Below the pieces are notes generated by a model. The model was not told the origin of the DNA. It worked only from the letters and a program-made list of their open reading frames with translations, and ran no database searches. A stretch of DNA of 64,000 nt from an uncultured Planctomycetales bacterium (GTDB lineage: Bacteria; Planctomycetota; Planctomycetia; Pirellulales; JAEUIK01), in the NCBI GenBank assembly GCA_938003525.1, contig CALKYM010000304.1:29287-93286 (forward strand), read 5' to 3'. The stretch's first letter is position 1, and the number at the start of each line of letters is the position of its first letter. A program made the position numbers and the translations under genes. Below, in pieces: positions 11,404 through 43,814 of this stretch.

Positions 11404-11542
11404 CTTCGGTCTGCAGGCCGCGTTAGACGTGCTACCCGACCTGACATCCGGCCGCGCTGGCGTGTTCGCGCGGCGAGCACTACACTCGGAAAGAGTGTCG
11501 CTGCCTTTGCGCGACTCGTTTCTTTTTCGTTCGGCGTAAGAA

Positions 11543-13105
11543 ATGTCTGCAGCAAACCATGCCGATGCTGAACGCTTCGACGTGGCCGTCATCGGTGGGG
11601 GCTGCGTGGGGACGGCCGTGGCCATGTTCGCGGCGCGGGCTGGACTGCGAACGGCGCTGTTGGAACGAGACGACTTTGGCGCGGGCACGACATCGGCTTC
11701 GACCGAACTGATCCACGGGGGGCTGCAGTACCTGTTCCGGCTGAAGCTGGGAATCGTTCGCCAGTCGAACGAGTACGCCCGGCGGATTCACGATTCCGCC
11801 GCCCATTTGTGCCGCCCAGTGCCGATCGTCGTGCCGGCTTATCGCGGCGGGCCGATTCCGCAGGCGGCGTTTCGCATCTTCATGGCGCTGTACGAGCGCT
11901 ACAACCGCCGCTACAAACATGCTCCGCCGGCGCGGCGCTTGAGCGCGGATGAGATCGTCGAGCGCGTGCCGGGCATTCGCAGCAACGGGCTCCTAGGCGG
12001 CGTTGAGTATTACGAGTGGTGGATCGATGCGGCGCGAATGTGCTTGGCCAATGCCCGATATGCCGCTGAACAAGGCGCCGACGTTCGCAATCACACCAAC
12101 GTGGCAAACATCGAGCCAACCGGCGATGGTGGGTTTCGCCTGGAGATCGAAGACCGCCGCACCCGGCAAACCGGCGCACTGCACGCCCGGGTGGTGATCA
12201 ACGCCACGGGGCCCTGGACGGATCGCATCTGCCGCATGGTCGGACTGGCCGACTCGCGGCGGATTCGGCCCACGCGCGGCGCGCACGTTTTTGTGCCCAA
12301 GCTGGGCGACGTGGGGTTGCTGGTGCACTTTGTCGATGGGCGCTTCGGCATCATCGTGCCCCGCGGCCCGTTGAGCATGATCGGCACGACCGACGACGAC
12401 TACTACGGCGATCTCGACTCGATGCAGGCTACTGAAGATGAGATTGGCTACCTGCTCGACGGCGCGCGGCATGTGCTACCCGGCGCCGATCTCGATCATG
12501 TCGTCGACACCAAAGTCGGCGTGCGACCCACGATCTATCAGTACGGCAAAAACGAAGACAAAGTGTCGCGCAACCACCGCGTCGAGCAGTTGAGCGATGC
12601 CGACATGCCGGGCTTCTTCTCGATCTATGGTGGCAAACTCGCCACCCACACGCGGATGGCCGAAGACGTGCTCGCTGCGGTCGGCGAATACCTCGGTCGA
12701 TCGATCGAGGCTCCCGCCGACTATCGCCTACCGGGCGCGCCGCAAGGAGAGTTGGAGTCGCTATTGGCTGAAGTTTCCGCCATCGCGGCTCGCAGCGGCT
12801 GCGAAGAGGCGGCCGTCGAGAGTCTCATGCGGCGCTACGGCACGCGCTACGACGCCGTGCTGCGGATCGTGCAGGAGCGACCCGAGCTGGGCGAGAATCT
12901 CTGTCGCTGTCAACGCGATGGCGCGCCCGCTCAATACGTGCTCGCCGCCGAAGTCGAGTACGGCCGCCAGCAGGAATGGGTGCATACGCCCGCTGACATC
13001 GGCCGCCGCACGGGACTCGGAGTGGGCGAGTGTCGCCAGAACGGCTGTCTCGATCGCGCCGCGCGGCTGCTTGAACAGACCCCAGACGCGTTGCTCTCGC
13101 GCTAA
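11543..13105 (+). CDS. FAD-dependent glycerol-3-phosphate dehydrogenase (GlpA/GlpD family) with C-terminal BFD-like Cys motif
   Basis: FDVAVIGGGCVGTAVAMFAARAG dinucleotide fold. STELIHGGLQYL is typical of G3P dehydrogenases. C-terminal NLCRCQ....RRTGLGVGECRQNGC resembles the BFD-like [2Fe-2S] tail of anaerobic GlpA. Confidence 0.85.
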   Translation: MSAANHADAERFDVAVIGGGCVGTAVAMFAARAGLRTALLERDDFGAGTTSASTELIHGGLQYLFRLKLGIVRQSNEYARRIHDSAAHLCRPVPIVVPAYRGGPIPQAAFRIFMALYERYNRRYKHAPPARRLSADEIVERVPGIRSNGLLGGVEYYEWWIDAARMCLANARYAAEQGADVRNHTNVANIEPTGDGGFRLEIEDRRTRQTGALHARVVINATGPWTDRICRMVGLADSRRIRPTRGAHVFVPKLGDVGLLVHFVDGRFGIIVPRGPLSMIGTTDDDYYGDLDSMQATEDEIGYLLDGARHVLPGADLDHVVDTKVGVRPTIYQYGKNEDKVSRNHRVEQLSDADMPGFFSIYGGKLATHTRMAEDVLAAVGEYLGRSIEAPADYRLPGAPQGELESLLAEVSAIAARSGCEEAAVESLMRRYGTRYDAVLRIVQERPELGENLCRCQRDGAPAQYVLAAEVEYGRQQEWVHTPADIGRRTGLGVGECRQNGCLDRAARLLEQTPDALLSR

Positions 13106-13122
13106 GTTATCGAAAAGCCGCC

Positions 13123-14856
13123 ATGCCTCCGATCCGCAATCGTCGACTGTGTCGCCACGATGGCTGGGGTCGCGCCAGCGACGCCATGCGGCTCGATGAT
13201 CGCCCGCAGTTGAAAGCCTATCTCGACGAGCGACTCGGCCGCTTGCCCACGGCCCGAGAAGCGCCACCGCGTACCGCGTTCGCCGTGGAACCGAGCCGCA
13301 TTCCCGACGAAGCACAGCGGGCGCTGGTCGATGGTCTGGGCGCGGACGCGGTTTCTCTCGACGACGACGATCGCGTGGGCCATTCACTGGGCCGCAGCTA
13401 TCGCGACTTGTTGCGCATCTGGTCGGGGCGGCTCGATGTCGTCACGGATGCGGTTGTCTACCCGGCGAACGAAGACCAGGTGGCGCTCGTTCTCCAGATC
13501 GCCGCCGCACACGATTTGGCCGTCGTCCCGTTTGGCGGAGGGACGAGCGTTGTCGGCGGCGTTGATCCCTGGAGCGGCGATCATCGCGCGGTCATCACGC
13601 TCGACACCATGCGCCTCGACCACGTCGAAATCGACGAAACGGCCCTGTTGGCCGACATCGGTGCCGGGGCCCTCGGTCCGGATCTCGAGCGAGCACTCAA
13701 TGCGCGCGGCTTCACGCTGGGCCACTTTCCGCAATCGTTCGAGTTTTCCACCTTCGGCGGCTGGGTGGCCACGCGAGGGGCGGGGCAGCAATCGACCCGC
13801 TACGGCAAGATTGAGAAGATGATTCAGTCGGTGCGGCTGGTCGCACCGGGCGGTGCCGTGCAAACCCGCAACGTGCCGGCCACCGCCGCGGGTCCGAGTC
13901 TGGTTGCGCAACTTGTCGGTTCCGAGGGCACGCTGGGCGTCATTACGTCGGCCGCCGCGCGGATTCGCCGCCGTCCGGCAGTGAAGCAGTTCGCCACGTT
14001 TTTTCTGCCGGATTTCGAGCGGGGTTCGACGCTGTTGCGCGAACTGGAACAGGCTGAACTGCCGCTTTCGGTCGTGCGGCTTTCGGACGCCGAGGAGACT
14101 CGGTTCCTGTTGAGGGCATCTGAAGACGGTCCCTCGTCGCTGATCACGCGGATCGGCAAGTCGTTCGTCGAGCGGCTGATGCGGCAGCGCAGGTTCCGCG
14201 AGTCGGAAACCTGTATCGCGCTGCTGAGCCTGGAAGGAGAAGCGAAGGCCGTGAAGGCGGCCTTGCGACAAGTGCGGAAGATCGGCAAACGGGTCGGCGG
14301 CATCTACGTCGGCTCGGGGCCCGGCCGCAAGTGGGAGAAGGATCGCTTTCGCCACCCCTACCTGCGCGACGAACTGCTCGCCCGGCAGATTATGGTCGAC
14401 ACGCTGGAGACGGCGACGACTTGGTCGAACCTGCCGCAGCTCTATCGCGGTGTGCGCGAGGCGATTGAACGAGTAATGGGCCAAGCCGGTCAGGCTGGCA
14501 TCGTGCTCTGCCACCTCTCGCACGTTTATCCAACCGGGTCGTCGCTCTACTACACGTTCTTTGCTCCACAAGTGGCCGGCGAAGAGTTGGCGCAATGGGA
14601 GCACGTGAAGCGGGCCGCCACCGAGGCCATCATCGCCGGCGGCGGGACGTTGACGCATCACCACGGCATCGGCAACGAACATCTGCCCCTCTCGGCCGAA
14701 CATGGTGCGGCAGGAGTGGCTGCGCTCTCGGCGTCCAAGGATGCGCTCGATCCGCGCGGCATCATGAATCCCGGCAAGCTGCTCGTCGAAGAACGTCCCC
14801 CGCTGGAGAAAAGCAATCGCCAGGAAATGCCGTCCGCCCAGACGCGCACGGCGTAG
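13123..14856 (+). CDS. Alkyldihydroxyacetonephosphate synthase (AGPS)-like FAD-linked oxidase
   Basis: Starts 17 nt after the previous gene. N-terminal extension then DDRVGHSLGRSYRDLLRIWSGRLDVVTDAVVYPANEDQV..VVPFGGGTSVVGGV. Later blocks: GHFPQSFEFSTFGGWVATRGAGQQSTRYGKIEKM, CHLSHVYPTGSSLYYTF, GGTLTHHHGIG. These blocks match, block for block, the eukaryotic AGPS pattern as I remember it. Confidence 0.8.
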   Translation: MPPIRNRRLCRHDGWGRASDAMRLDDRPQLKAYLDERLGRLPTAREAPPRTAFAVEPSRIPDEAQRALVDGLGADAVSLDDDDRVGHSLGRSYRDLLRIWSGRLDVVTDAVVYPANEDQVALVLQIAAAHDLAVVPFGGGTSVVGGVDPWSGDHRAVITLDTMRLDHVEIDETALLADIGAGALGPDLERALNARGFTLGHFPQSFEFSTFGGWVATRGAGQQSTRYGKIEKMIQSVRLVAPGGAVQTRNVPATAAGPSLVAQLVGSEGTLGVITSAAARIRRRPAVKQFATFFLPDFERGSTLLRELEQAELPLSVVRLSDAEETRFLLRASEDGPSSLITRIGKSFVERLMRQRRFRESETCIALLSLEGEAKAVKAALRQVRKIGKRVGGIYVGSGPGRKWEKDRFRHPYLRDELLARQIMVDTLETATTWSNLPQLYRGVREAIERVMGQAGQAGIVLCHLSHVYPTGSSLYYTFFAPQVAGEELAQWEHVKRAATEAIIAGGGTLTHHHGIGNEHLPLSAEHGAAGVAALSASKDALDPRGIMNPGKLLVEERPPLEKSNRQEMPSAQTRTA

Positions 14857-14995
14857 CGCTGCACTAGTGCTCCGTCAACGCGTAATCTTCGGGTACGAGT
14901 TGTCCGGCGGAGCACTACCATGTTGCCTGCGCCAAAGCACTTGCGTCTTTGGCGAACGTTTCGCGTCGGTGCGAATGAATCGGGCTGACGCTCCA

Positions 14996-15898
14996 CTAGG
15001 CGCTGGGCGGCGCGATCAGCCGGATGCGGCCGGGTTCGATCTCGCAGCTCACCGCCACCCGAGGCACTAGATCTCCGTCGAAGCAGATCTCGGCCGGGAT
15101 CTCCGTCTCGAACTCGACGCGCCGGCAACTGCGATACAGCGACTTCGGGTGATGGATGTGCGTGCCCTTGCGCAACGAAGCAAAGTTGCGGACGATCTCG
15201 CGGCGGCTTACGCCGGAAACGGCGTAAATGTGGAACTGCCCATCGTCCATCTTCGCGTCGGGAGCCACGGGCATGCCATCGCCGAAGTAGGCCGTACTGC
15301 ACACGGCGAGCAGGTGCAGTCGCTCGAGGCCGTAGACGTCGCCGTCGACGTTTAGCCGCACGTCGTAGGGGCGATAGCGGAGCAGAGCGCGGAGCGCTCC
15401 CACGTCGTAGGCACGTTTGGGGCTCAGCTTTCTCAGCCAGCGCGGCACGAAAACGACTGACGCCGCCGCGATGCCGAAGCTGGCTTCGGTAATGAACCGC
15501 AGTTGGCTGCCGTCGGTGAAGGTCACCTTGCCGAGATCGATCGGTACGCTCTCAGTCGCCGCCAACAATTGGCCAAGTTCAAGCGGATAGCCGGGCGCGG
15601 CTTTGACGAAATCGCAGGCACTGCCCCCGGGCAAAGGACCGATGGCAATGTCGGCATCGAGCGCGCCGTTGACGACGTCCATCAGCAGTCCGTCTCCGCC
15701 AACGACGATCAACTTGTCGAAGTCGGCGGCGTGCTGCCGGCAATAGTCGCCCGCGTGGCCGCCGTACTGGGTTTCGAGCAACACGACCTGCTGGTCGTCG
15801 ACGGCAGCCTGAATCTGGTCGCGCACGCGCGAGCGGTGCAGGCTCACGCCGTGTGGATTCACGATGACCAGCGTGCGTCCGACGATCGGTTGCGTCAC
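14996..15898 (-). CDS. Diacylglycerol-kinase-family lipid kinase (YegS/BmrU-like)
   Basis: GTG start. LVIVNPHG opening. KLIVVGGDGLLMDVVNG is the GGDG catalytic-domain motif. 300 aa, the typical size. Confidence 0.8.
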   Translation of the reverse strand: MTQPIVGRTLVIVNPHGVSLHRSRVRDQIQAAVDDQQVVLLETQYGGHAGDYCRQHAADFDKLIVVGGDGLLMDVVNGALDADIAIGPLPGGSACDFVKAAPGYPLELGQLLAATESVPIDLGKVTFTDGSQLRFITEASFGIAAASVVFVPRWLRKLSPKRAYDVGALRALLRYRPYDVRLNVDGDVYGLERLHLLAVCSTAYFGDGMPVAPDAKMDDGQFHIYAVSGVSRREIVRNFASLRKGTHIHHPKSLYRSCRRVEFETEIPAEICFDGDLVPRVAVSCEIEPGRIRLIAPPSA

Positions 15899-16146
15899 CT
15901 ACAAGCCTCGTCAACATCGACCGCGTCGGCGCATCTTCGCCGCGCCAACGCCAGAAGTCATGCTCGGCGTCATTGTGGCGGGGTGAACTGCGAGCAACCA
16001 GTGGACTGTCGGGGACTAATGCGATTCAAGCGTCGGCGAGTTGTATCGGGTGTCCGGCTGGTTCATATTTTCACGGGGTGCTACGTGCGGTCGTCAGCGA
16101 TAGCGCAGCACTTGGCAAATCATCTCGCAAACGACGTAGGATCGCC

Positions 16147-18999
16147 ATGTCAGTTCGCTTAACCGTCTACGCAGCGTTGGTGACGATCTTCCTTCCGACG
16201 GGGACAAACGCTGCGGCGCCTGAAATCACGGCAGTGCTGGAAAGTCCGCTGCTCGATCCGAATCAGCCGTTGGCCGACGCACAGCGGTTTACGCTGGCGC
16301 GGATTCCAGAAATCGAGCCGGTCGACTCGGCCGACGCGTGGACGGCCCGCGCGGATCAATGGCGCGAAGAAGTGTTGGACACGGTCGTCTTTCGTGGCCG
16401 CGCTGCCGGGTGGCGGGACGCGGAAACGCAGGTCGAGTGGCTCGATACGATTCCCGGAGGGCCCGGCTATCACATTCGCAAGCTGCGGTTCGAGGCGCTC
16501 CCCGGGTTGTGGATTCCCGCGCTGTTGTACGAGCCGGGCCAGTTTGACGGTCCGCTCAGCGTCGACGGGCGCGTGCCGGTCGTGCTCAACGTCAACGGGC
16601 ACGACGGCGACGGCAAGGTGGCCGAGTACAAACAGATTCGCTGTATCAATCAGGCGCGACGTGGAATGCTGGCCCTGAACGTCGAGTGGCTGGGTATGGG
16701 CCAGCTTCGCGGCGAAAGCTACGTGCACTACCGCTCGAATCAGATCGATCTCTGCGGAACCAGTGGACTGGCGCCTTTCTATCTCTCCATGTCGCGCGCG
16801 CTCGACCTGGCGCTCGCGCATCCCCACGCTGATCCCCAGCGCGTGGCCGTCGCGGGGCTCTCGGGCGGTGGCTGGCAGACAATCATCATCAGCGCGCTCG
16901 ATCCGCGCGTGACGCTCGCCAATCCCGTGGCCGGCTACAGCAGTTTTCGCACGCGGGCTCAGTACGTTTCGGACCTGGGCGATTCGGAGCAGACGCCCGT
17001 CGATCTGGCGACGATCGTCGATTACACGCACCTGACGGCGATGCGCGCACCGCGACCGACGCTGTTGACCTACAACGCCAAGGACAACTGTTGCTTCCGC
17101 GCCGATCATGCGCTGGAACCCTTGCTCGATGCAGCACGGCCGATCTTCGCGCTTTACGGACGCGAGCAGAATCTGGCCAGCCACGTGAATGAAGATCCCG
17201 GCGACCACAACTTCGGGCACGACAACCGGCTGGCCTTGTATCGCATGTTCGGTCAGCACTTCGTGCCTTCTGCCGCCACGTTCGACACCAGTGAGATTCC
17301 TTGTGAGGACGAGCTGAGGAGTGCAGACGAACTCCATGTGCCGCTCGAAGAGGGCAACGCGAACTTCAATACCTTGGCGCTGGAGTTGAGCGATCACCTG
17401 CCGCGGGAAGCCGCGATGCCGCAAACTGCCGAGGAGGCACCGCGCTGGCAGCAGCAGCGACGCGAACTATTGGCCCGGATCGTGAAGTATCACGAAGACG
17501 AAGCGACCGCTTTGCAACTTGGCACCGACTCCATCGATGACGTGCAGGTCGCCTATTGGAAGCTGCGGATCGGCGACGACTGGACGTTGCCGGTCGTTGA
17601 GTTCAGGCCCGCTGAGCCAGAAGGCCTGGCGCTCGTGATCGGCGACGAAGGACGCCAGGCGCAGGCCGACATCGTTGCGGCAAGACTCGCCCAGCAGCAG
17701 CGCGTGCTGGTCTGCGACGTCTTCGATCTCGGTGAAGCACAGGTCTCGGCGCGACCATTCTTGTGGGCCCTGCTCGTCTCTGCGGTGGGCGAGCGACCAT
17801 TGGGCGTGCAAGCGGGCCAGATTGCGGCCATCGCCCGTTGGGCGCACGCGCACTTCGAACCCGAGCGGCTCGACCTGATCTCTGGCGGTCCGCGCACGAG
17901 CGTGATGGCCTTGGTCGCAGCGGCGCTGGAAACCGACGCGATTGGCGCCGTGGCGCTGCACGACCCGCTGGGTAGTCTCCGGGAAGTCATCGAACGCAAC
18001 TGGGCCGTGAACGACTATCCCGAGTTGTTTTGCTTCGGCCTGTACGAGCACTTCGACGTGCACGACCTCGGCTTGCCCGTGGTGCCTCGTCCGATCACGG
18101 TGCACGAGGCGAGTCAGCGGGCGGCGAGTGAAATGCAGAGCTGGGACGAGGCTTACGCGCTGTATGCCATCGACCACGATCCCTTGGCCCAAACATCCGC
18201 ACACGCTGCGAATGGTGAACAGGCGGGCGTGCTGGTGGCGGGCATCGTGCTGAAGTGGCTTCGCGGCGAGAAGGATGCGAACTACGCACGGCTGGAACCG
18301 CTGGTTCGCTCGGCTGCCGCGGCGGGCGCCGAGATCATCTGTACGACGGAGTGCTTTCTCGACGGGTACGCCATCGCGGACAAGAGCATTCCGCTGGAAG
18401 AGTATCGGGCCCTCGGCGAGCGGATTCCCGATGGCCCCTACTTTCGCCGGCTGGCCGCGCTGGCTGACGAGCTGGATATCCATCTCGTCGCCGGGATGCT
18501 CGAAGCAGACGGAGAGCTGCGCTACAACACGGCGGTGATCATCGCGCCTGACGGCCGGCTGGCGGGCAAGTACCGCAAGCAGCGACTGGGACACGAGTCG
18601 GTGCGCAACACGGCGGGTGATGCCTCCGAGGTTTTCTCCTTACCGTATGGGAAACTCGGCGTGATGATTTGCGCGGATCGCCGCTATCGCGAGGTCGTGG
18701 ACGGATTCACGGAGCGCGGCGCGGAGTTTCTGCTGTGCCCCTCGGGCGGGATGTTTGGCGCCCGGCGCAACGACCCGATCGTGCAGTCGCGCTCGCGGGA
18801 GACCGGACGTTACATCGTGTTCGTGCATCCTGCAGAGTTTCTTGTCACCGCTCCGGGGGGCACGATTGCGGCACGTGAACTCGTCGGCGACCGGCTGGTG
18901 ATCCAGCGGCACGAAGTTGGCACGGCTGTGGACTCGTCGTTGGTGGGCTTTTTCCGCGTCCCGCTCCCCAGCGCAATACCAGCCGCAACGGGCAGATAA
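16147..18999 (+). CDS. Fusion protein: exported alpha/beta-hydrolase (acetyl-xylan-esterase-like) + second degenerate a/b-like region + C-terminal carbon-nitrogen hydrolase (nitrilase superfamily) domain
   Basis: The track start at 15973 is probably too long. ATG 16147 gives MSVRLTVYAALVTIFLPTGTNAAAPE, a signal peptide. Nucleophile elbow VAVAGLSGGGWQT. The nitrilase domain starts at about 18225 and has the Glu-Lys-Cys triad in context: CTTECFLDGY (E 18349-51), YRKQRLG (K 18577-79), GVMICADRRY (C 18669-71). Confidence 0.75.
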   Translation: MSVRLTVYAALVTIFLPTGTNAAAPEITAVLESPLLDPNQPLADAQRFTLARIPEIEPVDSADAWTARADQWREEVLDTVVFRGRAAGWRDAETQVEWLDTIPGGPGYHIRKLRFEALPGLWIPALLYEPGQFDGPLSVDGRVPVVLNVNGHDGDGKVAEYKQIRCINQARRGMLALNVEWLGMGQLRGESYVHYRSNQIDLCGTSGLAPFYLSMSRALDLALAHPHADPQRVAVAGLSGGGWQTIIISALDPRVTLANPVAGYSSFRTRAQYVSDLGDSEQTPVDLATIVDYTHLTAMRAPRPTLLTYNAKDNCCFRADHALEPLLDAARPIFALYGREQNLASHVNEDPGDHNFGHDNRLALYRMFGQHFVPSAATFDTSEIPCEDELRSADELHVPLEEGNANFNTLALELSDHLPREAAMPQTAEEAPRWQQQRRELLARIVKYHEDEATALQLGTDSIDDVQVAYWKLRIGDDWTLPVVEFRPAEPEGLALVIGDEGRQAQADIVAARLAQQQRVLVCDVFDLGEAQVSARPFLWALLVSAVGERPLGVQAGQIAAIARWAHAHFEPERLDLISGGPRTSVMALVAAALETDAIGAVALHDPLGSLREVIERNWAVNDYPELFCFGLYEHFDVHDLGLPVVPRPITVHEASQRAASEMQSWDEAYALYAIDHDPLAQTSAHAANGEQAGVLVAGIVLKWLRGEKDANYARLEPLVRSAAAAGAEIICTTECFLDGYAIADKSIPLEEYRALGERIPDGPYFRRLAALADELDIHLVAGMLEADGELRYNTAVIIAPDGRLAGKYRKQRLGHESVRNTAGDASEVFSLPYGKLGVMICADRRYREVVDGFTERGAEFLLCPSGGMFGARRNDPIVQSRSRETGRYIVFVHPAEFLVTAPGGTIAARELVGDRLVIQRHEVGTAVDSSLVGFFRVPLPSAIPAATGR

Positions 19000-19365
19000 G
19001 CCGGGTTTTTCCGCACTCCGCGATAGGTCGCCTGCGAGATCGGGTATCGGCTTATTGGTGTCTTCGCGGTCCTGTCACGTGTACAGGCTATGACGGCAGT
19101 GCCGGCTGTCGGGTGGCAAGCGGTCGCGCCTTGAGATTGGAATCTGCGGCGCCGAATAGAAGGCGGGGCAAACAGCTCGCGCCAGATGCACGAAAACCGA
19201 TGTGCTGACCAGACTTTCGCCTTCGGTAACGGCAACGAGCGCGGGGAGTTGGGCTCGCCACAAATGCCTGGACAAGGGCACGGGGCAACGTTGGCGGCCC
19301 GTAACGGAGAAAAACCACTCAGGCGATCGGTCCTCCGATCTACCGCCAGTGCGAAGGAGTGCACA

Positions 19366-20535
19366 ATGACTCGTCCTGTTCTCACCTCGTCCTGTCTGGC
19401 CCTGGCCTGGGGCCATTTAGCCTTCCTGGCGGCGTTGCCGGTCGGCGCTGAGGAAACCTCGCTCGCCAAACGCGCCGCCCGTATTCCCAGCGGAGCGGTG
19501 ATCGAACTGATCCAAGAGCGCTATTCCGACGGCGATGTGAAGATCGCCCGGGAAGTGACCCAAGATGTCGACGGCAACTACGTCAACCACGGCGAGTGGA
19601 AGATGTACGACCCGCAGGGCACGCTGGTCGCCGAGGGTGAGTACGCCGGCGGACAGCGCGACGGCACGTGGAATCGCTGGTACCGCCGCAATGAAGCGGC
19701 TCTGTTCTCCCAGGCTCCGTACGACAAGTTCGCCGAACCGTTCGTCTCGCAGATGACGTTCGACGCTGGCCGGCCTGACGGCGCATGGGTGATTTTTGAC
19801 GCCAACCAGCGCAAAGTGAGCGAGATCCACTTCACCGACGGGCAGCGCGACGGACAGGCGTCGTGGTGGTACGCGAATGGCAATCTGGCGCGAGTCATCG
19901 AATTCGCCGACGGCCGCATCAACGGGCTGTATAGCGAGTGGTCGGCCGATGGGACGCTCACCGCTCAGCAGACGTATCAGAACGGTCGCAAGCTGGCCAA
20001 GAAGATCGAGCACTTCGAGGTCGAGAAGGGCGCTCGCGGTCAGCGGCAAAAAGTGAAGAAGTCCGAAGGCACCTACCTTCACGCCGCCATGGTGCTGGAG
20101 ACCCCCGACAACTGGTGGAATGCCCAACTGGCCACATACTCGCGCGACGGCAATGACGAGCGTCATGGCCCTTGGGCGACGTGGTTCCGCAACGGTCAGC
20201 AACAGATCGCCGGACAGTACGAACACGACGTGCCCAGCGGCGACTTCACCTGGTGGTACTCTAACGGACAGATCGCCTCGCAAGGCGCGTACGAAGATGG
20301 CCATCCACAGGGCACCTGGGTCTGGTGGCACGAGAACGGCCAGAAGGCCACGCTCGGCGAATACGAGTTGGGCGAGCCGGTGGGCAAGTGGAACTGGTGG
20401 CAAGAGAACGGACGACTGGCCCGCGCCACGGACGTCGAGACCGAAGGCCACCCTTCATTGATGCCCGAGGAGGCGACCGCCGCTCAGCCGCAGGCGCCCG
20501 CCTTGATCGAACCGAATCAGATCCAGCGCCGCTAA
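19366..20535 (+). CDS. MORN-variant (YwqK-type) repeat protein, exported
   Basis: GAAGGAG lies upstream of ATG 19366, with signal peptide MTRPVLTSSCLALAWGHLAFLAALPVGA. Repeated units of the form G.W..Y..G.L..EG.Y..G.R.G.W, for example GEWKMYDPQGTLVAEGEYAGGQRDGTWNRWY. Confidence 0.75.
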   Translation: MTRPVLTSSCLALAWGHLAFLAALPVGAEETSLAKRAARIPSGAVIELIQERYSDGDVKIAREVTQDVDGNYVNHGEWKMYDPQGTLVAEGEYAGGQRDGTWNRWYRRNEAALFSQAPYDKFAEPFVSQMTFDAGRPDGAWVIFDANQRKVSEIHFTDGQRDGQASWWYANGNLARVIEFADGRINGLYSEWSADGTLTAQQTYQNGRKLAKKIEHFEVEKGARGQRQKVKKSEGTYLHAAMVLETPDNWWNAQLATYSRDGNDERHGPWATWFRNGQQQIAGQYEHDVPSGDFTWWYSNGQIASQGAYEDGHPQGTWVWWHENGQKATLGEYELGEPVGKWNWWQENGRLARATDVETEGHPSLMPEEATAAQPQAPALIEPNQIQRR

Positions 20536-20969: not shown

Positions 20970-21911
20970 ATGCTGCAACGCAGTTCGTTGCGCTGGCCCA
21001 TCACGCTCGGCGTGGTGATGATCATCCTGCTGATCGCGCTGACGGTCGGCTGGGTGCTGCTGACCGTTGCGGCCGGTCGCGCCATACCGGGTGCGTTCTG
21101 GGTCGTGCTGGCGCTGGGGACGACGTTCCTGGCGCTGGTCCTCGTGGGCGTGGTGCTCTATCTGTTGCTGACGATCAAGGAAATACAACTCGGCCGTCGC
21201 CAGGCCAACTTCGTCGACAGCGTCACGCACGAGCTCAAGTCGCCCATCGCTTCGCTCAAGCTGTATCTGCAAACGCTGCGGATGCGGGCAGTGAGCCAGG
21301 ACGAACGCGAAAGCTTCACCCAATTCATGCTCGAAGACGTCGAGCGGCTCGATTCGCTGATCACGCATCTACTCGAAGCGGCGCGGCTCGACCAGCAGCG
21401 GCCGCAGGATGATGAGATCGTCGACGTCGACGTGGCCGGCGTGTTGCGCAACTGCGCGGAGAGCGGCTGTCAGCGCTATCGTCTGCCGGCGGATACGATT
21501 GAGCTCGAGTTGCAGTCCGGCTGCGTTCGCGCGCGACCGGTCGATCTGGAGATCATCTTTCGCAACCTGGTCGATAACGCGTTGAAGTACTCGGGCGACC
21601 AGCCGGAGATCGAAATCGAGTCGCGCGTCGATGGCGACGACACGGTATTGGTCCGCATCGCGGACAACGGCCCCGGCATCCCAGGTCCCATGCGGCGGAA
21701 AATCTTCTGGCGGTTCTTTCGCATCGGCAGCGAACTGGAGCGATCGAAGAGCGGCACCGGTTTGGGGCTGTTTATCGTGCGGACGCTCGTTCGCCGGCTC
21801 CGAGGCCGCATCACGGTTCGCGGGCGCGGCTCACAGCCCGGGACGGAGTTCGAGGTCGAGCTGCCGCTCAGCCGGCCAAGCCCCGTGGCCGAGGTAGCTG
21901 CCGAGGTGTGA
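20970..21911 (+). CDS. Sensor histidine kinase (two N-terminal TM helices, HisKA + HATPase_c), no adjacent response regulator
   Basis: H-box FVDSVTHELKSPIASL, N-box FRNLVDNALKY, G-boxes DNGPGIP and GTGLGLFIV. Confidence 0.9.
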   Translation: MLQRSSLRWPITLGVVMIILLIALTVGWVLLTVAAGRAIPGAFWVVLALGTTFLALVLVGVVLYLLLTIKEIQLGRRQANFVDSVTHELKSPIASLKLYLQTLRMRAVSQDERESFTQFMLEDVERLDSLITHLLEAARLDQQRPQDDEIVDVDVAGVLRNCAESGCQRYRLPADTIELELQSGCVRARPVDLEIIFRNLVDNALKYSGDQPEIEIESRVDGDDTVLVRIADNGPGIPGPMRRKIFWRFFRIGSELERSKSGTGLGLFIVRTLVRRLRGRITVRGRGSQPGTEFEVELPLSRPSPVAEVAAEV

Positions 21912-22074
21912 CATCGTGCCGCGACGCCGGGCGGCCGACCGCGCAAACTCGGTCGAGCCAGGATTGTGTCGCGCCGCGGGGCTGAGTATGCTTCGACCCG
22001 CACATCGATGCTTGGCCCCCGCACACTCTGCCGCCGGGCAACTTACAGAAAGAGGCGTATGCTAGGTTTTGCGT

Positions 22075-23322
22075 ATGATGCTCCTGCTCGATAGCACGAT
22101 TCTGCTGGTCGCTCTGGCCGGGCATGTGGCGGCATTGATCGTTGTGCTCAATCACGTCCATTCGGCGCGGTTGAGGCTATGGGTCATCGACGCCATTACC
22201 TACACCTGCGAAGCAACCGTACTGGTGGCCGTGGGCTGCTGGGGATGGTGGTTCGCCCTCCACGGTTTTGGCGTGCTGGCACGTGCGGGACTGGCCCCGC
22301 TGCCAGCATGGTGCGTGGCCTATCTCGGACTATTCGGTCTCGTGGGCGCGACAGCCGTGCCGCTGTGGCTCTATCGCCGGGTGAACGCCACGAGCCCGGA
22401 ATTGTTGACGAACGACGCCCGACGCTACCACGACATCAAGCGGCATCTCGGGCGGCTGCCGGTCCGGCGGGGGCGCGACGCCCTGATGGCCCGTCTGCCG
22501 GGCAATGAAGTCCATCGCCTCGAACTCAGCGATCGCACGATCGAGTTGCCGCGGCTACGGCCGCAGCTCGACGGGCTCTCGATTGCACATCTTTCCGATG
22601 TGCACTTCAACGGCGTCATGCAGCAAGACTACTACGAAGAGGTCGTGCGGCTAACCAACGCCATGGCGCCCGACTTGATCGCCGTGACGGGTGACATCGC
22701 GGATCGCGAAGAATATCTCGACTGGATCCCGCAGACGCTGGGCAAACTCGTGGCGCCGTGCGGTGTCTACTTCATCTTTGGCAATCACGACTGGATCCTG
22801 GGCAAGATGACGGCCGCCCGAGAGGCGATCATGGCTGCCGGGCATACCTATTTAGGCGGGAGCTGGTTCTCGCTCGACGTCGCCGGACAACCGGTCGTAC
22901 TCGCCGGCAACGAAGCGCCCTGGTTTCCCGCGCCGCTCAGCCATGCCTACCCAAGCGAGAACGGTAGCGGGCGCCCGCTGAAGATTCTGCTGGCGCACTC
23001 TCCCGACCAATACCTCTGGGCGCGGCAGCACGACTTCGACTTGATGCTGGCCGGGCATACTCACGGCGGGCAAGTCGCGCTGCCGCGGCTGGGACCGCTG
23101 TTTGCCGCCAGTCGCACCGGCACGCAATACGCAGCCGGAACGTATTACAAACCGCCCACGGTGCTGCACACCAGCCGAGGGATCTCGAGCAACACGCCGC
23201 TGCGCTACAATGCCCCGCCGGAGCTGACCAAGATCGTGTTGCGGCCGCCCGTCGAGCGACGGATGAGCGTCGAGCGCGAAGTTGCCGAGCCCGCCGGAGC
23301 CTTTCCGCGCGAGCAGGGATAG
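22075..23322 (+). CDS. Membrane-anchored metallophosphoesterase (calcineurin-like), paralogue 1
   Basis: The track start at 22069 is TTG; ATG lies at 22075. N-terminal TM helices. Metallophosphoesterase blocks: IAHLSDVHF, AVTGDIAD, FGNHD, LLAHSPDQ, LAGHTHGGQ. Clearly alignable with 37712..38944. Confidence 0.85.
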   Translation: MMLLLDSTILLVALAGHVAALIVVLNHVHSARLRLWVIDAITYTCEATVLVAVGCWGWWFALHGFGVLARAGLAPLPAWCVAYLGLFGLVGATAVPLWLYRRVNATSPELLTNDARRYHDIKRHLGRLPVRRGRDALMARLPGNEVHRLELSDRTIELPRLRPQLDGLSIAHLSDVHFNGVMQQDYYEEVVRLTNAMAPDLIAVTGDIADREEYLDWIPQTLGKLVAPCGVYFIFGNHDWILGKMTAAREAIMAAGHTYLGGSWFSLDVAGQPVVLAGNEAPWFPAPLSHAYPSENGSGRPLKILLAHSPDQYLWARQHDFDLMLAGHTHGGQVALPRLGPLFAASRTGTQYAAGTYYKPPTVLHTSRGISSNTPLRYNAPPELTKIVLRPPVERRMSVEREVAEPAGAFPREQG

Positions 23323-32814: not shown

Positions 32815-33948
32815 GTGATCGAAGTGTCGAGCGGAACCATCGCCGTGCTCGTCATGTGCTCGTGTTGGGGGCAGGATCCCACGGCCCGAGAGACGATCGA
32901 AGAGCACTATCCCGACGGACAGCTCAAGCTCCAGCGCGAAGTCATCCGCGATGCGCAAGGACGCGAAGTCCGCGACGGCGTGCAACGGCGCTACGACCCC
33001 TCAGGCCAAGTTGTTGATGAGCGCCGCTATCAGAACAACGTGCTCGAAGGCCCCTGGACGCAGTGGTATCCCTCCGGAGAGAAAAAGGCCGAGGGCAATT
33101 ACCACGCAGGCCGGCGCGACGGCGCCGAGATCCACTGGAGCCGTCGCGGCGTGCCGTTTCTGGAAACGAACTATCGCGCGGGCCGTCGCCACGGCAAGCG
33201 CTTTGAGCGGATCGCCGTCGATCGGGTCATCGTCGAGGCCGACTACGTGGACGGGCAACTAGAAGGCGTCTATCAGGAGTGGTATCCAGACGGACAACCG
33301 AAGATCGAGCGACACTATCTGGCGGGCGAGCCACACGGTACCGACCGCCGCTGGTACAAAGACGGCACGCTGCACACCGAGGCCAATTACGAGAAGGGCG
33401 ACAAGCACGGCCTCTACCAGGAGTGGTTCCTGAACGGCCAGCTCATCACGTCCACCACGTACGACCGGGGCGTCTTGCACGGTCCGGTCACGCTCTATCA
33501 CGCCAGCGGCAACAAGAAGGCCGAAGGCGCCTACAACCGCGGAGAAATCGACGGCGTGTGGCGCGAGTATCACGACAACGAGGCCGGGCAGTTAGCCGCC
33601 GAGTGGAACTACCAGCACGGAATTCGGCAGGGTGTGCAACGCAGTTGGCACGAGAACGGCCAGCCCTTCATGGAAACGAACGTCGTCGACGACGTTCAAC
33701 AGGGCCCTTGGACCGAGTGGTACGACAACGGTACCAAGAAGGCCGAGGGGGAGTACGCCGACGGCCAGTTCGATGGTCGGGTGAGCTACTGGTACGCCGA
33801 TGGCAACCCTTGGGCCGTGCGCGAATATCGGGCCGGCGTGCGACACGGAGTCTGGCAAGACTGGGACGAAGAGGGCCAGATGATCGCGGACCAGCGCTAC
33901 GAAGACGGACGCCTGGTCGAGTCAGCAGATACCGTCGCGGCGCCGTGA
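32815..33948 (+). CDS. MORN-variant (YwqK-type) repeat protein, second copy
   Basis: GTG start. Repeats include GPWTQWYPSGEKKAEGNYHAGRRDG, GVYQEWYPDGQPKIERHYLAGEPHG, GLYQEWFLNGQL and GPWTEWYDNGTKKAEGEYADGQFDG. Same repeat family as 19366..20535. Confidence 0.75.
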   Translation: MIEVSSGTIAVLVMCSCWGQDPTARETIEEHYPDGQLKLQREVIRDAQGREVRDGVQRRYDPSGQVVDERRYQNNVLEGPWTQWYPSGEKKAEGNYHAGRRDGAEIHWSRRGVPFLETNYRAGRRHGKRFERIAVDRVIVEADYVDGQLEGVYQEWYPDGQPKIERHYLAGEPHGTDRRWYKDGTLHTEANYEKGDKHGLYQEWFLNGQLITSTTYDRGVLHGPVTLYHASGNKKAEGAYNRGEIDGVWREYHDNEAGQLAAEWNYQHGIRQGVQRSWHENGQPFMETNVVDDVQQGPWTEWYDNGTKKAEGEYADGQFDGRVSYWYADGNPWAVREYRAGVRHGVWQDWDEEGQMIADQRYEDGRLVESADTVAAP

Positions 33949-35921: not shown

Positions 35922-37655
35922 ATGAGGAGGGGCAGGGTGTCTTCCAAGGCCAGAGTGCTCGTCGTCAGCAACTCCCGCCAGCGCGAAAAAGAGCTCCTGG
36001 ATCAACTCGGTGATCGGCTGGAAGTCGTCACCGTCAAGTCGATGGTTCGGGCGCTGGCCTGCCTTGGCCGTGCCGATTTCGACGGCGTCTACGTCGACAC
36101 CTTCTACCTCCAAGACGCTTTTCAAGTCGGCAGCTTGCTGCAGAACGAAAAGATCTTGCAGGGCATGCCCGATGGCGTCGCGCTGCTCGAAGGCGACAAC
36201 ACGATCATCTGGGGCAACGATCGCCTCCGCAATTGGTGCGGGCGCGATGACGTCGTCGGCGCGAACTTCTACTCGGCGCTGGGCAGTCCGGACATTCTCG
36301 GTCCTGATTATTGCCCGTTTCACTCGGCGTTGTCTTCGGGAAGTTCGACGAATTCGACGCTCATGCGTCAGGGCGACGGCCGCTATTTCCACGTGCACGC
36401 CACACCGCTGCGCGACGACGAGCAAGCACCGCGGCATCTGATCGTCACGGTACGCGACATCACGGCTGAAACGTTGCAGCAGCAAAAGCTGGCCGCCATT
36501 CATCAGGCCGGCGCTGCGCTGGCCGACATGACGCCCGCCGAACTGGCATCGATGACCGTCGAAGAGCGGATCGAGCTGGTCAAGTCGAACATCCTGCACT
36601 TCACCAAGGACCTGCTCAACTACGACGTGGTCGAGATTCGGCTACTCGATCAGGAAACCGGCAAGCTCGAGCCGCTGCTGGCCGAAGGCATCCGGCCCGA
36701 AGCGGCACGTCGCGATCTCTACGCATTGCCACAGAACAACGGCGTCACCGGCTTCGTGGCCGCGACCGGCAAGAGCTATCTCTGCGAAGACACCCAGGAA
36801 GATCCGCTCTACCTGGAAGGCTGTGCCGGTGCCAAGAGTTCGCTCACGGTGCCCCTGTCACTACACGACGAAGTCATCGGGACGTTCAACGTCGAGAGCC
36901 CCGAGCCGCGTGCATTCAACGAAAGCGACTTGCAGTTTTTGGAGATCTTCACCCGCGATCTCGCGGTGGCGCTCAACACGCTGGAATTGCTGGTTGCCGA
37001 AAAAGCGACGACCACTGCCGAAAGTGTCGAAGCCATCCACAGTGCCGTGGCGCTGCCCGTCGATGAGATCCTCAACGACGCCGTCAACGTGATGGAGCGG
37101 TACATCGGGCACGAGCCCGAGGTGGTCGAGCGGCTGCAGCGGATTCTGAAACACGCCCGTGATATCAAGCAGGTGATTCAGGCGGTGGGGCAGAAGATGA
37201 CCCCGACCCAGGCGCACCCGGAGTACCTGCCGCAACCGCAACACACCGAACTCCGCGGACGACAGGTGCTGGTGGCCGATGCCGACGAAAGCGTTCGCAG
37301 CGCTGCCCATACGCTGCTCGAACGTTTCGGCTGCATCGTCGAAACCGCACACAACGGCGACGAAGCCCTCTTCATGGCTCGCAACATGCTTTCGTCCGGA
37401 TCGTATGACGCGATCATTGCCGACATCCGGCTGCCCGACATGACCGGTTACGATCTGCTGCTGAAGCTGAAAGAGGCGCTCGATCCGGTACCGCTAATTC
37501 TCATGACGGGCTTCGGCTACGATCCCGGCCATTCGATCGTCAAAGCGCGGCAGGCAGGGCTGCGTTCTGTGCTGTACAAGCCCTTCCGTCTGGATCAACT
37601 GCTCGAGACGGTCAGCCAGATCGTTTCGTCCCCGAAGCCAGTCCGTCAGGCCTGA
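35922..37655 (+). CDS. Signal-transduction protein: N-terminal receiver-like domain + PAS + GAF + C-terminal response-regulator receiver; no output domain
   Basis: ARVLVVSNSRQ..FDGVYVD is receiver-like and lacks the acidic DD pair. PAS: GVALLEGDNTIIWGNDRLRNWCG..YFHVHATPL. GAF: YDVVEIRLLD..GFVAATGKSYLCEDTQEDPLY..SLTVPLSLHDEVIGTFNVES. REC: RQVLVADADESVR..YDAIIADIRLPDMTGYDLL..LILMTGFG..YKPF. An alternative GTG start at 35937 follows GAGGAGGGG. Confidence 0.85.
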   Translation: MRRGRVSSKARVLVVSNSRQREKELLDQLGDRLEVVTVKSMVRALACLGRADFDGVYVDTFYLQDAFQVGSLLQNEKILQGMPDGVALLEGDNTIIWGNDRLRNWCGRDDVVGANFYSALGSPDILGPDYCPFHSALSSGSSTNSTLMRQGDGRYFHVHATPLRDDEQAPRHLIVTVRDITAETLQQQKLAAIHQAGAALADMTPAELASMTVEERIELVKSNILHFTKDLLNYDVVEIRLLDQETGKLEPLLAEGIRPEAARRDLYALPQNNGVTGFVAATGKSYLCEDTQEDPLYLEGCAGAKSSLTVPLSLHDEVIGTFNVESPEPRAFNESDLQFLEIFTRDLAVALNTLELLVAEKATTTAESVEAIHSAVALPVDEILNDAVNVMERYIGHEPEVVERLQRILKHARDIKQVIQAVGQKMTPTQAHPEYLPQPQHTELRGRQVLVADADESVRSAAHTLLERFGCIVETAHNGDEALFMARNMLSSGSYDAIIADIRLPDMTGYDLLLKLKEALDPVPLILMTGFGYDPGHSIVKARQAGLRSVLYKPFRLDQLLETVSQIVSSPKPVRQA

Positions 37656-37711
37656 GCGCTCCGCCGGGCGCATGGGCGATGCTGGCCTCCACGCGCCGTT
37701 GAGCTGCGCTG

Positions 37712-38944
37712 ATGGAACGAGTCCTCGATATCCTGCTCTGCCTGCTGGCACTGGTCGGGCACGCCGGCGCCGTCATCTGGCTGACCTGTCAGATTCACGC
37801 GGCAGCGCTGCACCACCATATGGTGCGATATCTCAGCGGGCTGCTCGCGCTCGCGGGCATCGCACTGCCTGTGGTGGTGGCCGTCATCGTGTTTCCCGAT
37901 GGCGTACAGATCGTCGGTCGCGCCGGTTGGTCGCCCTGGGAACTCGTCGCGCTGGGATACTTCGGCATCTGCTGCCTGATCGCATTGGGTCCGGTGCTGT
38001 GGTGGTTCACCCGAGGCGTCTCGACCCAACCGCCTGAGGCGCTGCACCGCAGCCAGGCGGAACTGATCGACCTGGCCGGGCGACTCAACGGGCGGCCCGT
38101 GCAGGGTGCCTATTACAAGCTGCTCGCCCAACTGCCGTTCAATCAGACGTTCGAACTGGAAGTGAGCCGCAAGCAGTTGGGGCTGGCCAACCTGACGCCC
38201 GGGCTGCAGGGGCTGACTATCGCTCACCTTTCCGACCTGCATCTCAGCGGGCGTCTCGAGCGACCGTACTTCGAAGAGATCGTGCATCATGCCAACGAGT
38301 TGGACGCCGATCTTGTCGCGGTGACCGGCGACCTGGTCGATAAGGAACCCTGTATCGACTGGTTGCCGAAGACGTTGGGACAATTGCGGGCCAAGCACGG
38401 CGTTTACTTCATTCTCGGCAACCACGACTTGCGCGTGGATACCGCGACCGTACGACGCACACTGGTCGATGCGGGCCTGATCGACATTGGCGGCCGCTGG
38501 CAAATCGTTTCGACTGGCGCCGACGAGCTGCTGGTTGCCGGCAACGAACTACCATGGATCCGACCCGCGGCGGACTTGCACGACGCTCCGCCGCCGGCCT
38601 CGGCGGGCGGTCCGCTGCGGCTGCTGTTGGCCCACACGCCCGACCAATTCAATTGGGCGCGGCGATTGCGATTCGATCTCATGCTGGCCGGCCACAACCA
38701 CGGCGGCCAGTTTCAGTTTCCCGCCGTTGGCCCGCTGTTGGCCCCGAGCCGTCACGGCGTGAAGTACGCATCCGGCACGTTCTACAAACCGCCCACTGTG
38801 ATGCACGTCAGCCGCGGTATTTCCGCGCTCGTGCCCGTGCGTTTCAACTGCCGGCCGGAAATTACACTGCTCGAATTACAGCCTGCCGAAAACGGGCGAC
38901 CGACGACGATGCCCGGCGAGCGATTTCACTCGCAGCGGGCGTGA
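37712..38944 (+). CDS. Membrane-anchored metallophosphoesterase (calcineurin-like), paralogue 2
   Basis: ATG start 56 nt after the upstream gene. N-terminal TM helices. Blocks IAHLSDLHL, AVTGDLVD, LGNHD, LLAHTPDQ, LAGHNHGGQ, YKPPTVMHVSRGIS. Colinear with 22075..23322. Confidence 0.85.
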   Translation: MERVLDILLCLLALVGHAGAVIWLTCQIHAAALHHHMVRYLSGLLALAGIALPVVVAVIVFPDGVQIVGRAGWSPWELVALGYFGICCLIALGPVLWWFTRGVSTQPPEALHRSQAELIDLAGRLNGRPVQGAYYKLLAQLPFNQTFELEVSRKQLGLANLTPGLQGLTIAHLSDLHLSGRLERPYFEEIVHHANELDADLVAVTGDLVDKEPCIDWLPKTLGQLRAKHGVYFILGNHDLRVDTATVRRTLVDAGLIDIGGRWQIVSTGADELLVAGNELPWIRPAADLHDAPPPASAGGPLRLLLAHTPDQFNWARRLRFDLMLAGHNHGGQFQFPAVGPLLAPSRHGVKYASGTFYKPPTVMHVSRGISALVPVRFNCRPEITLLELQPAENGRPTTMPGERFHSQRA

Positions 38945-42684: not shown

Positions 42685-42737
42685 GCGTGGACTCGGCTTC
42701 GTGACGTGTGACGGGTTACTCCGGCGGGCGATGCCCG

Positions 42738-43811: not shown

Positions 43812-43814
43812 CAA

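Follow-up and report, generated by a model that had tools for sequence, protein, structure and literature searches.

We have analysed a 64,000-nt stretch of DNA from an uncultured Planctomycetales bacterium (contig CALKYM010000304.1; 'the window', whose positions serve as coordinates below) and identified in it, at 11543..15898, the planctomycete copy of a widespread bacterial lipid module. Three open reading frames (ORFs) make up the locus, and they encode a paralogue of the glycerol-3-phosphate dehydrogenase GlpD, a homologue of alkyldihydroxyacetonephosphate synthase (AGPS), the flavoenzyme that introduces the ether bond of ether lipids, and a lipid kinase of the YegS type. The locus is an ordinary instance of the module; the module itself is uncharacterised, and in the literature we found no paper linking AGPS homologues with GlpD. 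Among 88 loci that we compared (80 from a genome scan, seven from relatives, and the window), GlpD adjoins the AGPS homologue in 45, a YegS-type kinase does so in 37, and both are present in 35. The adjacency of GlpD and AGPS is thus far beyond chance, and in some lineages it has become fixed in fusion proteins. The features of the locus are as follows.

11543..13105, plus strand: GlpD/GlpO-family FAD-dependent glycerol-3-phosphate-type dehydrogenase paralogue, 520 aa (Pfam DAO and DAO_C)
12902..13048, plus strand: four-Cys motif in the DAO_C domain, C454, C456, C497 and C502 (C-x-C ... RRTGLGVGEC-x4-C), with GlpA-like spacing
13106..13122, plus strand: junction of 17 nt between the GlpD stop and the AGPS start, read from the sequence
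13123..14856, plus strand: AGPS-family flavoenzyme, 577 aa, with an N-terminal domain, a PCMH-type FAD-binding domain and a cap domain (Pfam and structure match)
13165..13170, plus strand: W15-G16 of the N-terminal W-x-G-W-G motif, invariant in alignment A1 (KWNGWGD in Dictyostelium ADPS)
14077..14079, plus strand: Arg319, equivalent to guinea-pig AGPS Arg419 (4bby alignment), invariant in A1
14548..14550, plus strand: Tyr476, equivalent to guinea-pig AGPS Tyr578 (4bby alignment), invariant in A1
14656..14664, plus strand: His512-His513-His514, the HHH loop, equivalent to guinea-pig His615-617 (alignments), invariant in A1
14857..14995, no strand: convergent intergenic gap of 139 nt between the AGPS homologue and the kinase (ORF coordinates)
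14996..15898, minus strand: soluble lipid kinase of the YegS/DgkB/Rv2252 family, 300 aa, GTG start (Pfam DAGK_cat and YegS_C)

The ORF list gives the three reading frames at these positions with lengths of 520, 577 and 300 aa. An earlier note, made from the letters of the window alone, had described the 17-nt spacing, the convergent kinase and a series of motif blocks, including HHHG.G (HHHGIG in the sequence), in the 577-aa translation; all of them are found as it described. The G+C content at third codon positions of the three ORFs (0.77-0.81) is typical for coding sequence of the window, whose overall G+C content is 64%. Of the EF-G relatives at 75-79% identity, all that are named belong to Pirellulales or Planctomycetia, which bears out the planctomycete origin that the earlier note assumed. 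The short junction between the GlpD and AGPS genes implies that the two are probably co-transcribed and coupled.

Conservation of the module across bacteria

GlpD-linked AGPS homologues occur in at least five phyla, their carriers being Actinomycetota, Alphaproteobacteria, Chloroflexota, Planctomycetota, Bdellovibrionota and one deltaproteobacterium. Ten of the 45 GlpD-linked loci have no kinase; in several phyla the kinase gene lies within the same operon. The gene order is GlpD>kinase>AGPS in Alphaproteobacteria and AGPS>GlpD>kinase in Chloroflexota, a Bacteriovoracaceae genome and a metagenome-assembled genome of Planctomycetales; in actinomycetes a divergent GlpD gene is followed by AGPS>kinase, and in the clade of the window GlpD>AGPS is followed by a convergent kinase. 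Since the order varies among phyla, selection for the association is favoured over inherited synteny.

Closer to the window, the GlpD>AGPS pair is present in all seven members of its clade, which has 100% support. Junctions in these relatives range from -58 to +79 nt, with overlaps of 1 nt in L083 and L084 and of 2 nt in L085. The convergent kinase is found in four of the seven; in L083, L087 and L088 an orthologous kinase, 45-60% identical, converges on the pair in the same way. Natural fusions in four clusters at 50% identity (P0248, P0249, P0275 and P0276; about 1,100 aa) join an N-terminal AGPS to a C-terminal GlpD with DAO and DAO_C domains. The tie between dehydrogenase and AGPS homologue that the earlier note had proposed, and its assignment of the lipid kinase to the pair, are thus borne out, and the check on adjacency in relatives that it had suggested does not speak against it.

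Mycobacteria carry the module as well. Their loci (L024, L036, L041, L047, L066 and others) have a divergent GlpD, an AGPS homologue and a kinase, with KAS and AccD6-type genes upstream; by these upstream genes they correspond to the accD6 - Rv2248 - glpD1 (Rv2249c) - Rv2250c - Rv2251 - Rv2252 region of Mycobacterium tuberculosis. The order of glpD1, Rv2251 (annotated 'flavoprotein') and Rv2252 ('diacylglycerol kinase') downstream of accD6, and a joint change in their expression, are documented (PMC4564863), and a second glpD copy exists in M. tuberculosis (PMC4866775). Rv2252 was characterised as a diacylglycerol kinase in phospholipid synthesis, as far as the citing paper relates (Owens et al. 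2006, cited in PMC3229680); for Rv2251 we found no assigned function in the literature searched.

An AGPS homologue in a planctomycete is not new in itself. The first homologue search returned 120 matches above 487 bits, including Phycisphaerae, Syntrophobacteria, Anaerolineae, Dehalococcoidia and cyanobacteria, many of them already named 'alkyldihydroxyacetonephosphate synthase' by JGI. The genome scan gave at least 600 rows, and an exhaustive search of 1.84 billion representatives gave 1,397 cluster representatives at 50% identity (E <= 1e-30). Published surveys place Agps homologues in many phyla, among them Desulfobacterota, Chloroflexota, Verrucomicrobiota, Myxococcota and some Brocadiia (PMC11868695; PMC13159169), and a 2025 preprint finds bacterial AGPS hits too many for direct tree building and with little deep phylogenetic signal (bioRxiv 10.1101/2025.10.10.681575). 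The view of the earlier note that AGPS homologues are sparse in bacteria was therefore wrong. A side observation from the cluster set concerns P0320, P0348 and P0377, proteins related to AGPS (900-990 aa) in which two stretches match FAD_binding_4 and which are possibly tandem or duplicated PCMH flavoenzymes.

Two genomic settings of bacterial AGPS homologues

A second setting resembles the classical ether-lipid pathway. In the tree, eukaryotic AGPS groups with a bacterial set that has neither GlpD nor kinase neighbours; the eukaryotic clade has 72% support and its link to the bacterial set is weaker. Here the partners are a short-chain dehydrogenase/reductase (SDR) and a PF01553 acyltransferase before AGPS (L071), a fatty-acyl reductase (FAR; NAD_binding_4, Sterile and HAD) and an acyltransferase before AGPS (L006), or an acyltransferase before and an SDR after it (L043). 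An acyltransferase is also present in L054, a FAR-like gene lies directly upstream of AGPS in L080, and P0209 and P0296 are acyltransferase-AGPS fusions. GlpD or kinase occurs in none of the four acyltransferase loci and acyltransferase in none of the 45 GlpD loci (Fisher p = 0.053, with small n). At least two settings can therefore be told apart for bacterial AGPS homologues, a classical one like that of Myxococcus xanthus and the GlpD-coupled one seen in the window. The absence of acyltransferase, FAR and reductase is systematic for the latter, which is hence not the eukaryotic or myxobacterial pathway in miniature.

The Myxococcota locus L077 was considered as a stand-in for M. xanthus MXAN_1676 and rejected: its neighbours are TPR/PEGA and FG-GAP proteins, with no FAR-acyltransferase, and in the tree it clusters with alphaproteobacterial GlpD-linked sequences.

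The Solirubrobacterales/Thermoleophilia loci (L005, L013, L015, L017, L020 and about 25 more) have an AGPS homologue with neither GlpD nor kinase; L037 and L074 are exceptions among the Solirubrobacterales of the tree sample. In these loci the AGPS gene is in conserved synteny with genes for a MerR regulator, an FHA protein, a CDP-alcohol phosphatidyltransferase, a 4HBT thioesterase and a WS/DGAT wax-ester synthase. This arrangement could be a third lipid context; as a module it was set aside and treated as clade synteny of lineage-specific neighbours.

Identity of the AGPS homologue

By sequence and predicted structure the 577-aa protein belongs to the AGPS family and not to the GlcD/D-LDH group. 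Pfam recognises FAD_binding_4 (7.6e-33) and FAD-oxidase_C (2.5e-35). In a sequence search of the PDB the best matches are Dictyostelium ADPS (2uuu, E = 2.6e-92, 313 bits; 32% identity across 518 residues) and guinea-pig AGPS (4bby, E = 2.5e-74, 254 bits), and the best match outside AGPS is D-LDH (E = 1.2e-25, 93 bits), all other such matches scoring at most 93 bits. NCBIfam has no AGPS model, and only its GlcD-type models match the protein, all well under their cut-offs.

The residues expected of AGPS are in place. In alignment A1, which comprises 22 bacterial AGPS homologues, R415 is invariant together with the tryptophan, glycine, arginine, tyrosine and histidine positions listed above. Guinea-pig Arg419, Tyr578 and His615-617 are reportedly active-site residues (Razeto 2007; Nenci 2012). 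PDB entries 4bc7 (R419H) and 4bca (Y578F) are mutant structures of guinea-pig AGPS at the equivalents of Arg319 and Tyr476.

An AF2 model of the protein reached a pLDDT of 84.8, with low values at 513-516, as expected for the mobile HHH loop. The top 37 Foldseek matches of this model in the PDB are all AGPS (TM 0.78-0.86 over about 570 of 577 columns, N-terminal domain included), and D-LDH ranks below them with TM 0.69. A neighbour-joining tree puts the AGPS family on a long branch apart from the GlcD/YdiJ-type paralogue that the window itself encodes (49960..52917). The claim of the earlier note that this is no generic GlcD oxidase agrees with PDB scores, residues, N-terminal domain, fold and tree alike, and on the branching within GlcD/lactate dehydrogenases for which it had asked to check, tree and scores place the protein with AGPS.

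The linked dehydrogenase and lipid kinase

In the 520-aa protein Pfam recognises DAO (8.8e-56) and DAO_C (2.4e-11). Over its whole length it can be aligned with Bacillus GlpD, GlpO and Escherichia coli GlpD, its best PDB match being Bacillus halodurans GlpD (3da1, E = 9.4e-56, residues 9-491; 2qcu, E = 5.4e-44). With NCBIfam models it scores 260.7 bits for GlpD (PRK12266, cut-off 360) and 183 for GlpA (TIGR03377, cut-off 552.8), and it stays under every equivalog cut-off (GlpD, GlpA, GlpO). On these comparisons the predicted dehydrogenase is a divergent paralogue, closer to GlpD/GlpO than to GlpA.

Of the 48 AGPS-linked GlpD paralogues, 47-48 have H58, R328, R343 and K365 unchanged. We take these residues to correspond to H50, R317, R332 and K354 of E. 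coli GlpD (the last three with an offset of +11), residues that presumably contact the substrate. Because the phosphate-binding residues are kept, the paralogue should still bind the head group of glycerol-3-phosphate (G3P). Between the linked paralogues and canonical GlpD, the latter represented by two sequences only, we found no universally fixed difference. In the planctomycete clade alone (seven of the 48 linked paralogues), the Arg of HGGLRYL is replaced by Gln62 and the Lys of SSK by Glu55; Gln62 presumably corresponds to E. coli GlpD R54, which we also take to be substrate-contacting.

The earlier note had read the C-terminal region as a GlpA-type BFD-like Cys tail. Four cysteines with GlpA-like spacing are indeed there; the isolated tail has no Pfam match to Fer2_BFD (PF04324) at E <= 0.05, DAO_C alone being matched, and the protein is of the GlpD/GlpO kind. 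An anaerobic GlpA with a BFD-like [2Fe-2S] domain was rejected on this basis and for want of adjacent glpB/glpC, partners whose absence from the window the note had reported correctly. The motif is uncommon among the AGPS-linked GlpD paralogues (4-6 of 41, all from close planctomycete relatives) and is a possible metal or Fe-S site specific to that clade. The combination of K->E, R->Q and four Cys in the planctomycete paralogues suggests altered substrate contacts, perhaps with an added metal or Fe-S site.

The kinase matches DAGK_cat (3.8e-17) and YegS_C (1.8e-27) and has the GGDG nucleotide-binding motif as 'VVGGDGLL'. In the PDB the Bacillus diacylglycerol kinase, BmrU and DgkB (4wrr, 3s40, 3t5p, 2qv7) match it full-length at E ~1e-17; its NCBIfam scores are 124.7 bits for PRK13057 'lipid kinase' (cut-off 274) and 88.5 for TIGR00147 (cut-off 118.65).

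Proposed function and alternatives

AGPS (EC 2.5.1.26) converts acyl-dihydroxyacetone phosphate (acyl-DHAP) and a fatty alcohol into alkyl-DHAP and a fatty acid. We propose that the module performs a GlpD-coupled variant of this chemistry, leading to 1-O-alkyl-DHAP and sn-1 alkyl ether glycerolipids, a reading for which confidence and doubt are about evenly balanced. The AGPS homologue would carry out a flavin-assisted exchange at C1 of a DHAP lipid, turning an ester into an ether, and the GlpD paralogue, acting in the step directly before it, would oxidise a G3P-type compound to the DHAP level. The substrate of the latter may be G3P or, more economically, 1-acyl-G3P, which would give acyl-DHAP directly with no need of a DHAP acyltransferase. 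The kinase would phosphorylate mono- or di-radyl-glycerol and in this way feed or recycle the lipid pool, and genes at other sites would provide the fatty alcohol and the last keto-reduction. Two considerations lead us to favour the GlpD paralogue as the supplier of acyl-DHAP itself: DHAP is a metabolite central to glycolysis, and enzymes that are fused usually catalyse steps that follow one another. Conversion of 1-acyl-G3P to acyl-DHAP would explain the missing DHAP acyltransferase in GlpD-linked clusters. The earlier proposal that the dehydrogenase makes DHAP as the backbone substrate of AGPS is not upheld, as it skips the obligatory acylation step and DHAP needs no dedicated supplier.

Hints of a biosynthetic role come from L083, where the kinase has a FAR-like gene (NAD_binding_4) as its neighbour, and from L082 and L086, where an SDR adjoins the GlpD-AGPS pair. 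As core partners these neighbours were rejected, being sporadic across loci (tblastn), with SDRs only 26-37% identical.

Several further points count against a GlpD-coupled biosynthesis. The SDRs beside the pair are not demonstrably orthologous. A Pfam scan of 53 large window ORFs gave neither a fatty-acyl reductase nor an acyltransferase for DHAP or glycerol phosphate, in line with the earlier note, and there is no reductase near the three genes. GlpD is oxidative and ether-lipid biosynthesis needs a reduction after AGPS, so that the partner points to DHAP-lipids and leaves the pathway incomplete. In the window the kinase gene is convergent and not co-transcribed with the GlpD-AGPS pair. The residue comparison cannot separate G3P from 1-acyl-G3P as the substrate of the GlpD paralogue, and the deep nodes of the tree, with less than 60% support, do not establish that the GlpD-linked group is monophyletic. 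We found no enzyme assay of any member of the GlpD-linked AGPS subgroup in the literature, and mycobacteria, although carriers of the module, are not known to contain alkyl-glycerol lipids. Salvage or cleavage of alkylglycerols would agree just as well with an oxidative partner that comes without a reductase, and the module may serve to build ether lipids or to salvage them.

A more specific and tentative version, which we consider possible but rather less probable than the general proposal, makes the GlpD paralogue a lysophosphatidate-type dehydrogenase acting on 1-acyl- or 1-alkyl-sn-G3P. Kinase, dehydrogenase and AGPS would then form a self-contained linear pathway, in which the kinase would phosphorylate a radyl-glycerol, the dehydrogenase would bring it to the DHAP level and AGPS would swap ester and ether at sn-1, no DHAP acyltransferase being required.

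The foremost alternative, which was the view of the earlier note, is a classical de novo pathway with scattered genes: GlpD would make only free DHAP and AGPS would exchange the chain, with acyl-DHAP, fatty alcohol and the closing reduction coming from an unlinked acyltransferase, FAR and reductase. It draws on the intact residues and fold of AGPS, the conserved phosphate-binding residues of GlpD, the FAR-like gene of L083 and SDRs of L082 and L086, and an SDR and epimerase/NAD_binding_4 pair 45 kb away in the window. We nevertheless consider it unlikely, because a coupled or fused supplier of a metabolite as central as DHAP is hard to justify, the fused AGPS-GlpD enzymes would run non-consecutive steps, and an acyltransferase is never seen in GlpD-linked clusters, yet in the other subgroup it lies right next to AGPS or is fused with it.

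Slightly less probable again is that the module serves to salvage or break down ether lipids taken up from outside. From 1-O-alkylglycerol the kinase would make 1-alkyl-G3P, GlpD would oxidise it to alkyl-DHAP, and AGPS, working in reverse or with water, would release fatty alcohol together with acyl-DHAP or DHAP, so that the three conserved genes would be a complete linear pathway. These are the only functions conserved together (GlpD and kinase in 35 of the 88 loci), the redox partner is an oxidative dehydrogenase and not a biosynthetic NAD(P)H reductase, and FAR and acyltransferase, which are absent, would not be required. Salvage would also suit the mycobacteria among the carriers, which are not known to make ether lipids, and the animal salvage pathway likewise starts with an alkylglycerol kinase, one of unrelated fold (PMC13596139). 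Against it stand the ten GlpD-linked loci that lack the kinase, the FAR-like neighbour in L083, which suggests biosynthesis, and the assignment of Rv2252 to phospholipid synthesis in the account cited above. AGPS is also not known to cleave alkyl-DHAP efficiently, and an alkoxide is a poor leaving group.

A last alternative, highly improbable, takes the 577-aa protein for a common FAD-linked enzyme of the GlcD/D-LDH type, an oxidase or dehydrogenase of 2-hydroxy acids, whose neighbours are there by chance: it has Pfam domains in common with these enzymes, and NCBIfam offers GlcD-type models alone (all far under cut-offs), but the scores (313 bits to AGPS, 93 to D-LDH), the AGPS-specific residues and N-terminal domain, the long branch between it and the in-window GlcD/YdiJ-type paralogue, the conserved gene neighbourhood and the AGPS-GlpD fusions all speak against it.

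Non-isoprenoid alkyl glycerol ethers are in wide use as sedimentary biomarkers and blur the 'lipid divide' between bacteria and archaea; of the bacterial enzymes that make them only a part is known, namely ElbD, Ger/PlsA and myxobacterial Agps. In current metagenomic surveys any Agps homologue is taken as potential for ether lipids or plasmalogens (PMC11868695). In the 88 loci sampled the GlpD-coupled setting is the more frequent one (45, of which 35 with the kinase) and comes without the classical partners; if the GlpD paralogue does supply acyl-DHAP, or if the module serves salvage, gene-based predictions of ether-lipid producers would change. In either case Rv2251 and glpD1, so far orphan genes of M. 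tuberculosis, would gain a function, and a new flavoenzyme activity would be defined. The lysophosphatidate-type reading, if true, would amount to a second way for bacteria to make ether lipids, or to the first by which they salvage or cleave them, extending from Planctomycetota to M. tuberculosis and fixed in natural AGPS-GlpD fusions. The AGPS-GlpD fusion proteins are a ready single-polypeptide system for studying what the module does.

Genomic surroundings in the window

Neither flank of the locus has to do with lipid synthesis: upstream lies the gene for a BNR-repeat (sialidase-type) protein, downstream that for an esterase/CN-hydrolase fusion. The latter (15973..18999, plus strand, 1008 aa), encoded immediately downstream of the kinase, has an N-terminal esterase-like region with a weak AXE1 match and a C-terminal carbon-nitrogen hydrolase; its counterpart in L081 has a later called start and 950 aa. 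A consensus scan of 11300-16100, the 139-nt gap included, detected no promoter or terminator, such a scan being uninformative for Planctomycetes. None of glpK, glpF, glpB and glpC lies near the GlpD paralogue among the Pfam-scanned ORFs of the window.

The second PCMH flavoenzyme of the window (49960..52917, minus strand, 985 aa) has FAD_binding_4 and FAD-oxidase_C fused with Fer4 and CCG, as in the GlcD-GlcF/YdiJ type. It is the sole CCG/Fer4 protein there and served as the outgroup of the tree. In L087 and L088 the same kind of protein is encoded about 4 kb from the AGPS-kinase genes.

At 60166..62018 (minus strand) an overlapping gene pair encodes an SDR of 274 aa and a NAD-dependent epimerase/3-beta-HSD protein of 343 aa with a weak NAD_binding_4 match. 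The pair adjoins an SBF transporter gene and lies about 45 kb off the AGPS gene; its products are conceivable reductase candidates.

Elsewhere, 39830..46862 (minus strand) holds a MoxR AAA ATPase - DUF58 - VWA/BatA-type operon, resembling the Bat cluster of aerotolerance, which includes a 1015-aa VWA/GATase1-like protein. Two regions, 20970..23322 and 35922..38944 (both plus strand), are alike in having a sensor or regulator followed by a calcineurin-like phosphoesterase of about 410 aa; the regulators are a HisKA/HATPase kinase and a PAS-GAF-receiver protein, and MORN-repeat proteins are encoded nearby (19186..20535 and 32815..33948).

Comparison with known systems

The window protein has in common with eukaryotic AGPS/ADPS (Dictyostelium 2UUU, guinea-pig 4BBY and trypanosomatid ADS1) the three-domain fold, the W-x-G-W-G motif and the Arg, Tyr and His residues. 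Unlike the eukaryotic enzymes it is not peroxisomal, and a GlpD paralogue and a lipid kinase stand in the place of GNPAT and FAR, which are not encoded nearby. In the tree, whose deep nodes are weakly supported, it falls outside the clade that contains the eukaryotes.

M. xanthus Agps (MXAN_1676) is encoded in an operon with a FAR-acyltransferase fusion (MXAN_1675) and an epimerase (MXAN_1674), according to the description of Lorenzen 2014 that is given in bioRxiv 10.1101/2025.10.10.681575. It is likewise a bacterial AGPS homologue and, by the same description, genetically implicated in ether-lipid formation. The contexts, compared by description, differ in that FAR and acyltransferase accompany the M. 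xanthus gene whereas GlpD and kinase accompany that of the window, and the classical context of the M. xanthus type (L006, L071, L043, P0209, P0296) shows no overlap with the GlpD/kinase context in the 88 loci.

ElbD (elbB-E) and Ger/modified PlsA are proposed routes to sn-1 alkyl ether glycerolipids, including in some Planctomycetota (Sahonero-Canavesi 2022, PMC13159169). Both rely on enzymes and chemistry unrelated to those discussed here (ester reduction, and a multidomain reductase/acyltransferase, respectively), and neither was seen in the window.

With GlpD of E. coli and Bacillus, GlpO and GlpA(BC) the window dehydrogenase has in common DAO and DAO_C, the histidine of HGG and the phosphate-binding Arg and Lys. 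It differs from these proteins in staying under the NCBIfam cut-offs and in having Gln for the Arg of HGGLRYL and Glu for the Lys of SSK; the four-Cys spacing is like that of GlpA(BC), unlike which it has no BFD Pfam match and no glpB/glpC nearby.

In M. tuberculosis the glpD1-Rv2251-Rv2252 region likewise brings the three functions together. The AGPS homologues of mycobacteria have about 40% identity with the window protein, and their loci differ from that of the window in the divergent GlpD, the co-directional kinase and an inserted TetR regulator. The actinomycete AGPS proteins form their own clade with 100% support, and the actinomycete GlpD paralogues, unlike that of the window, have no four-Cys motif and keep the Arg of HGGLRYL.

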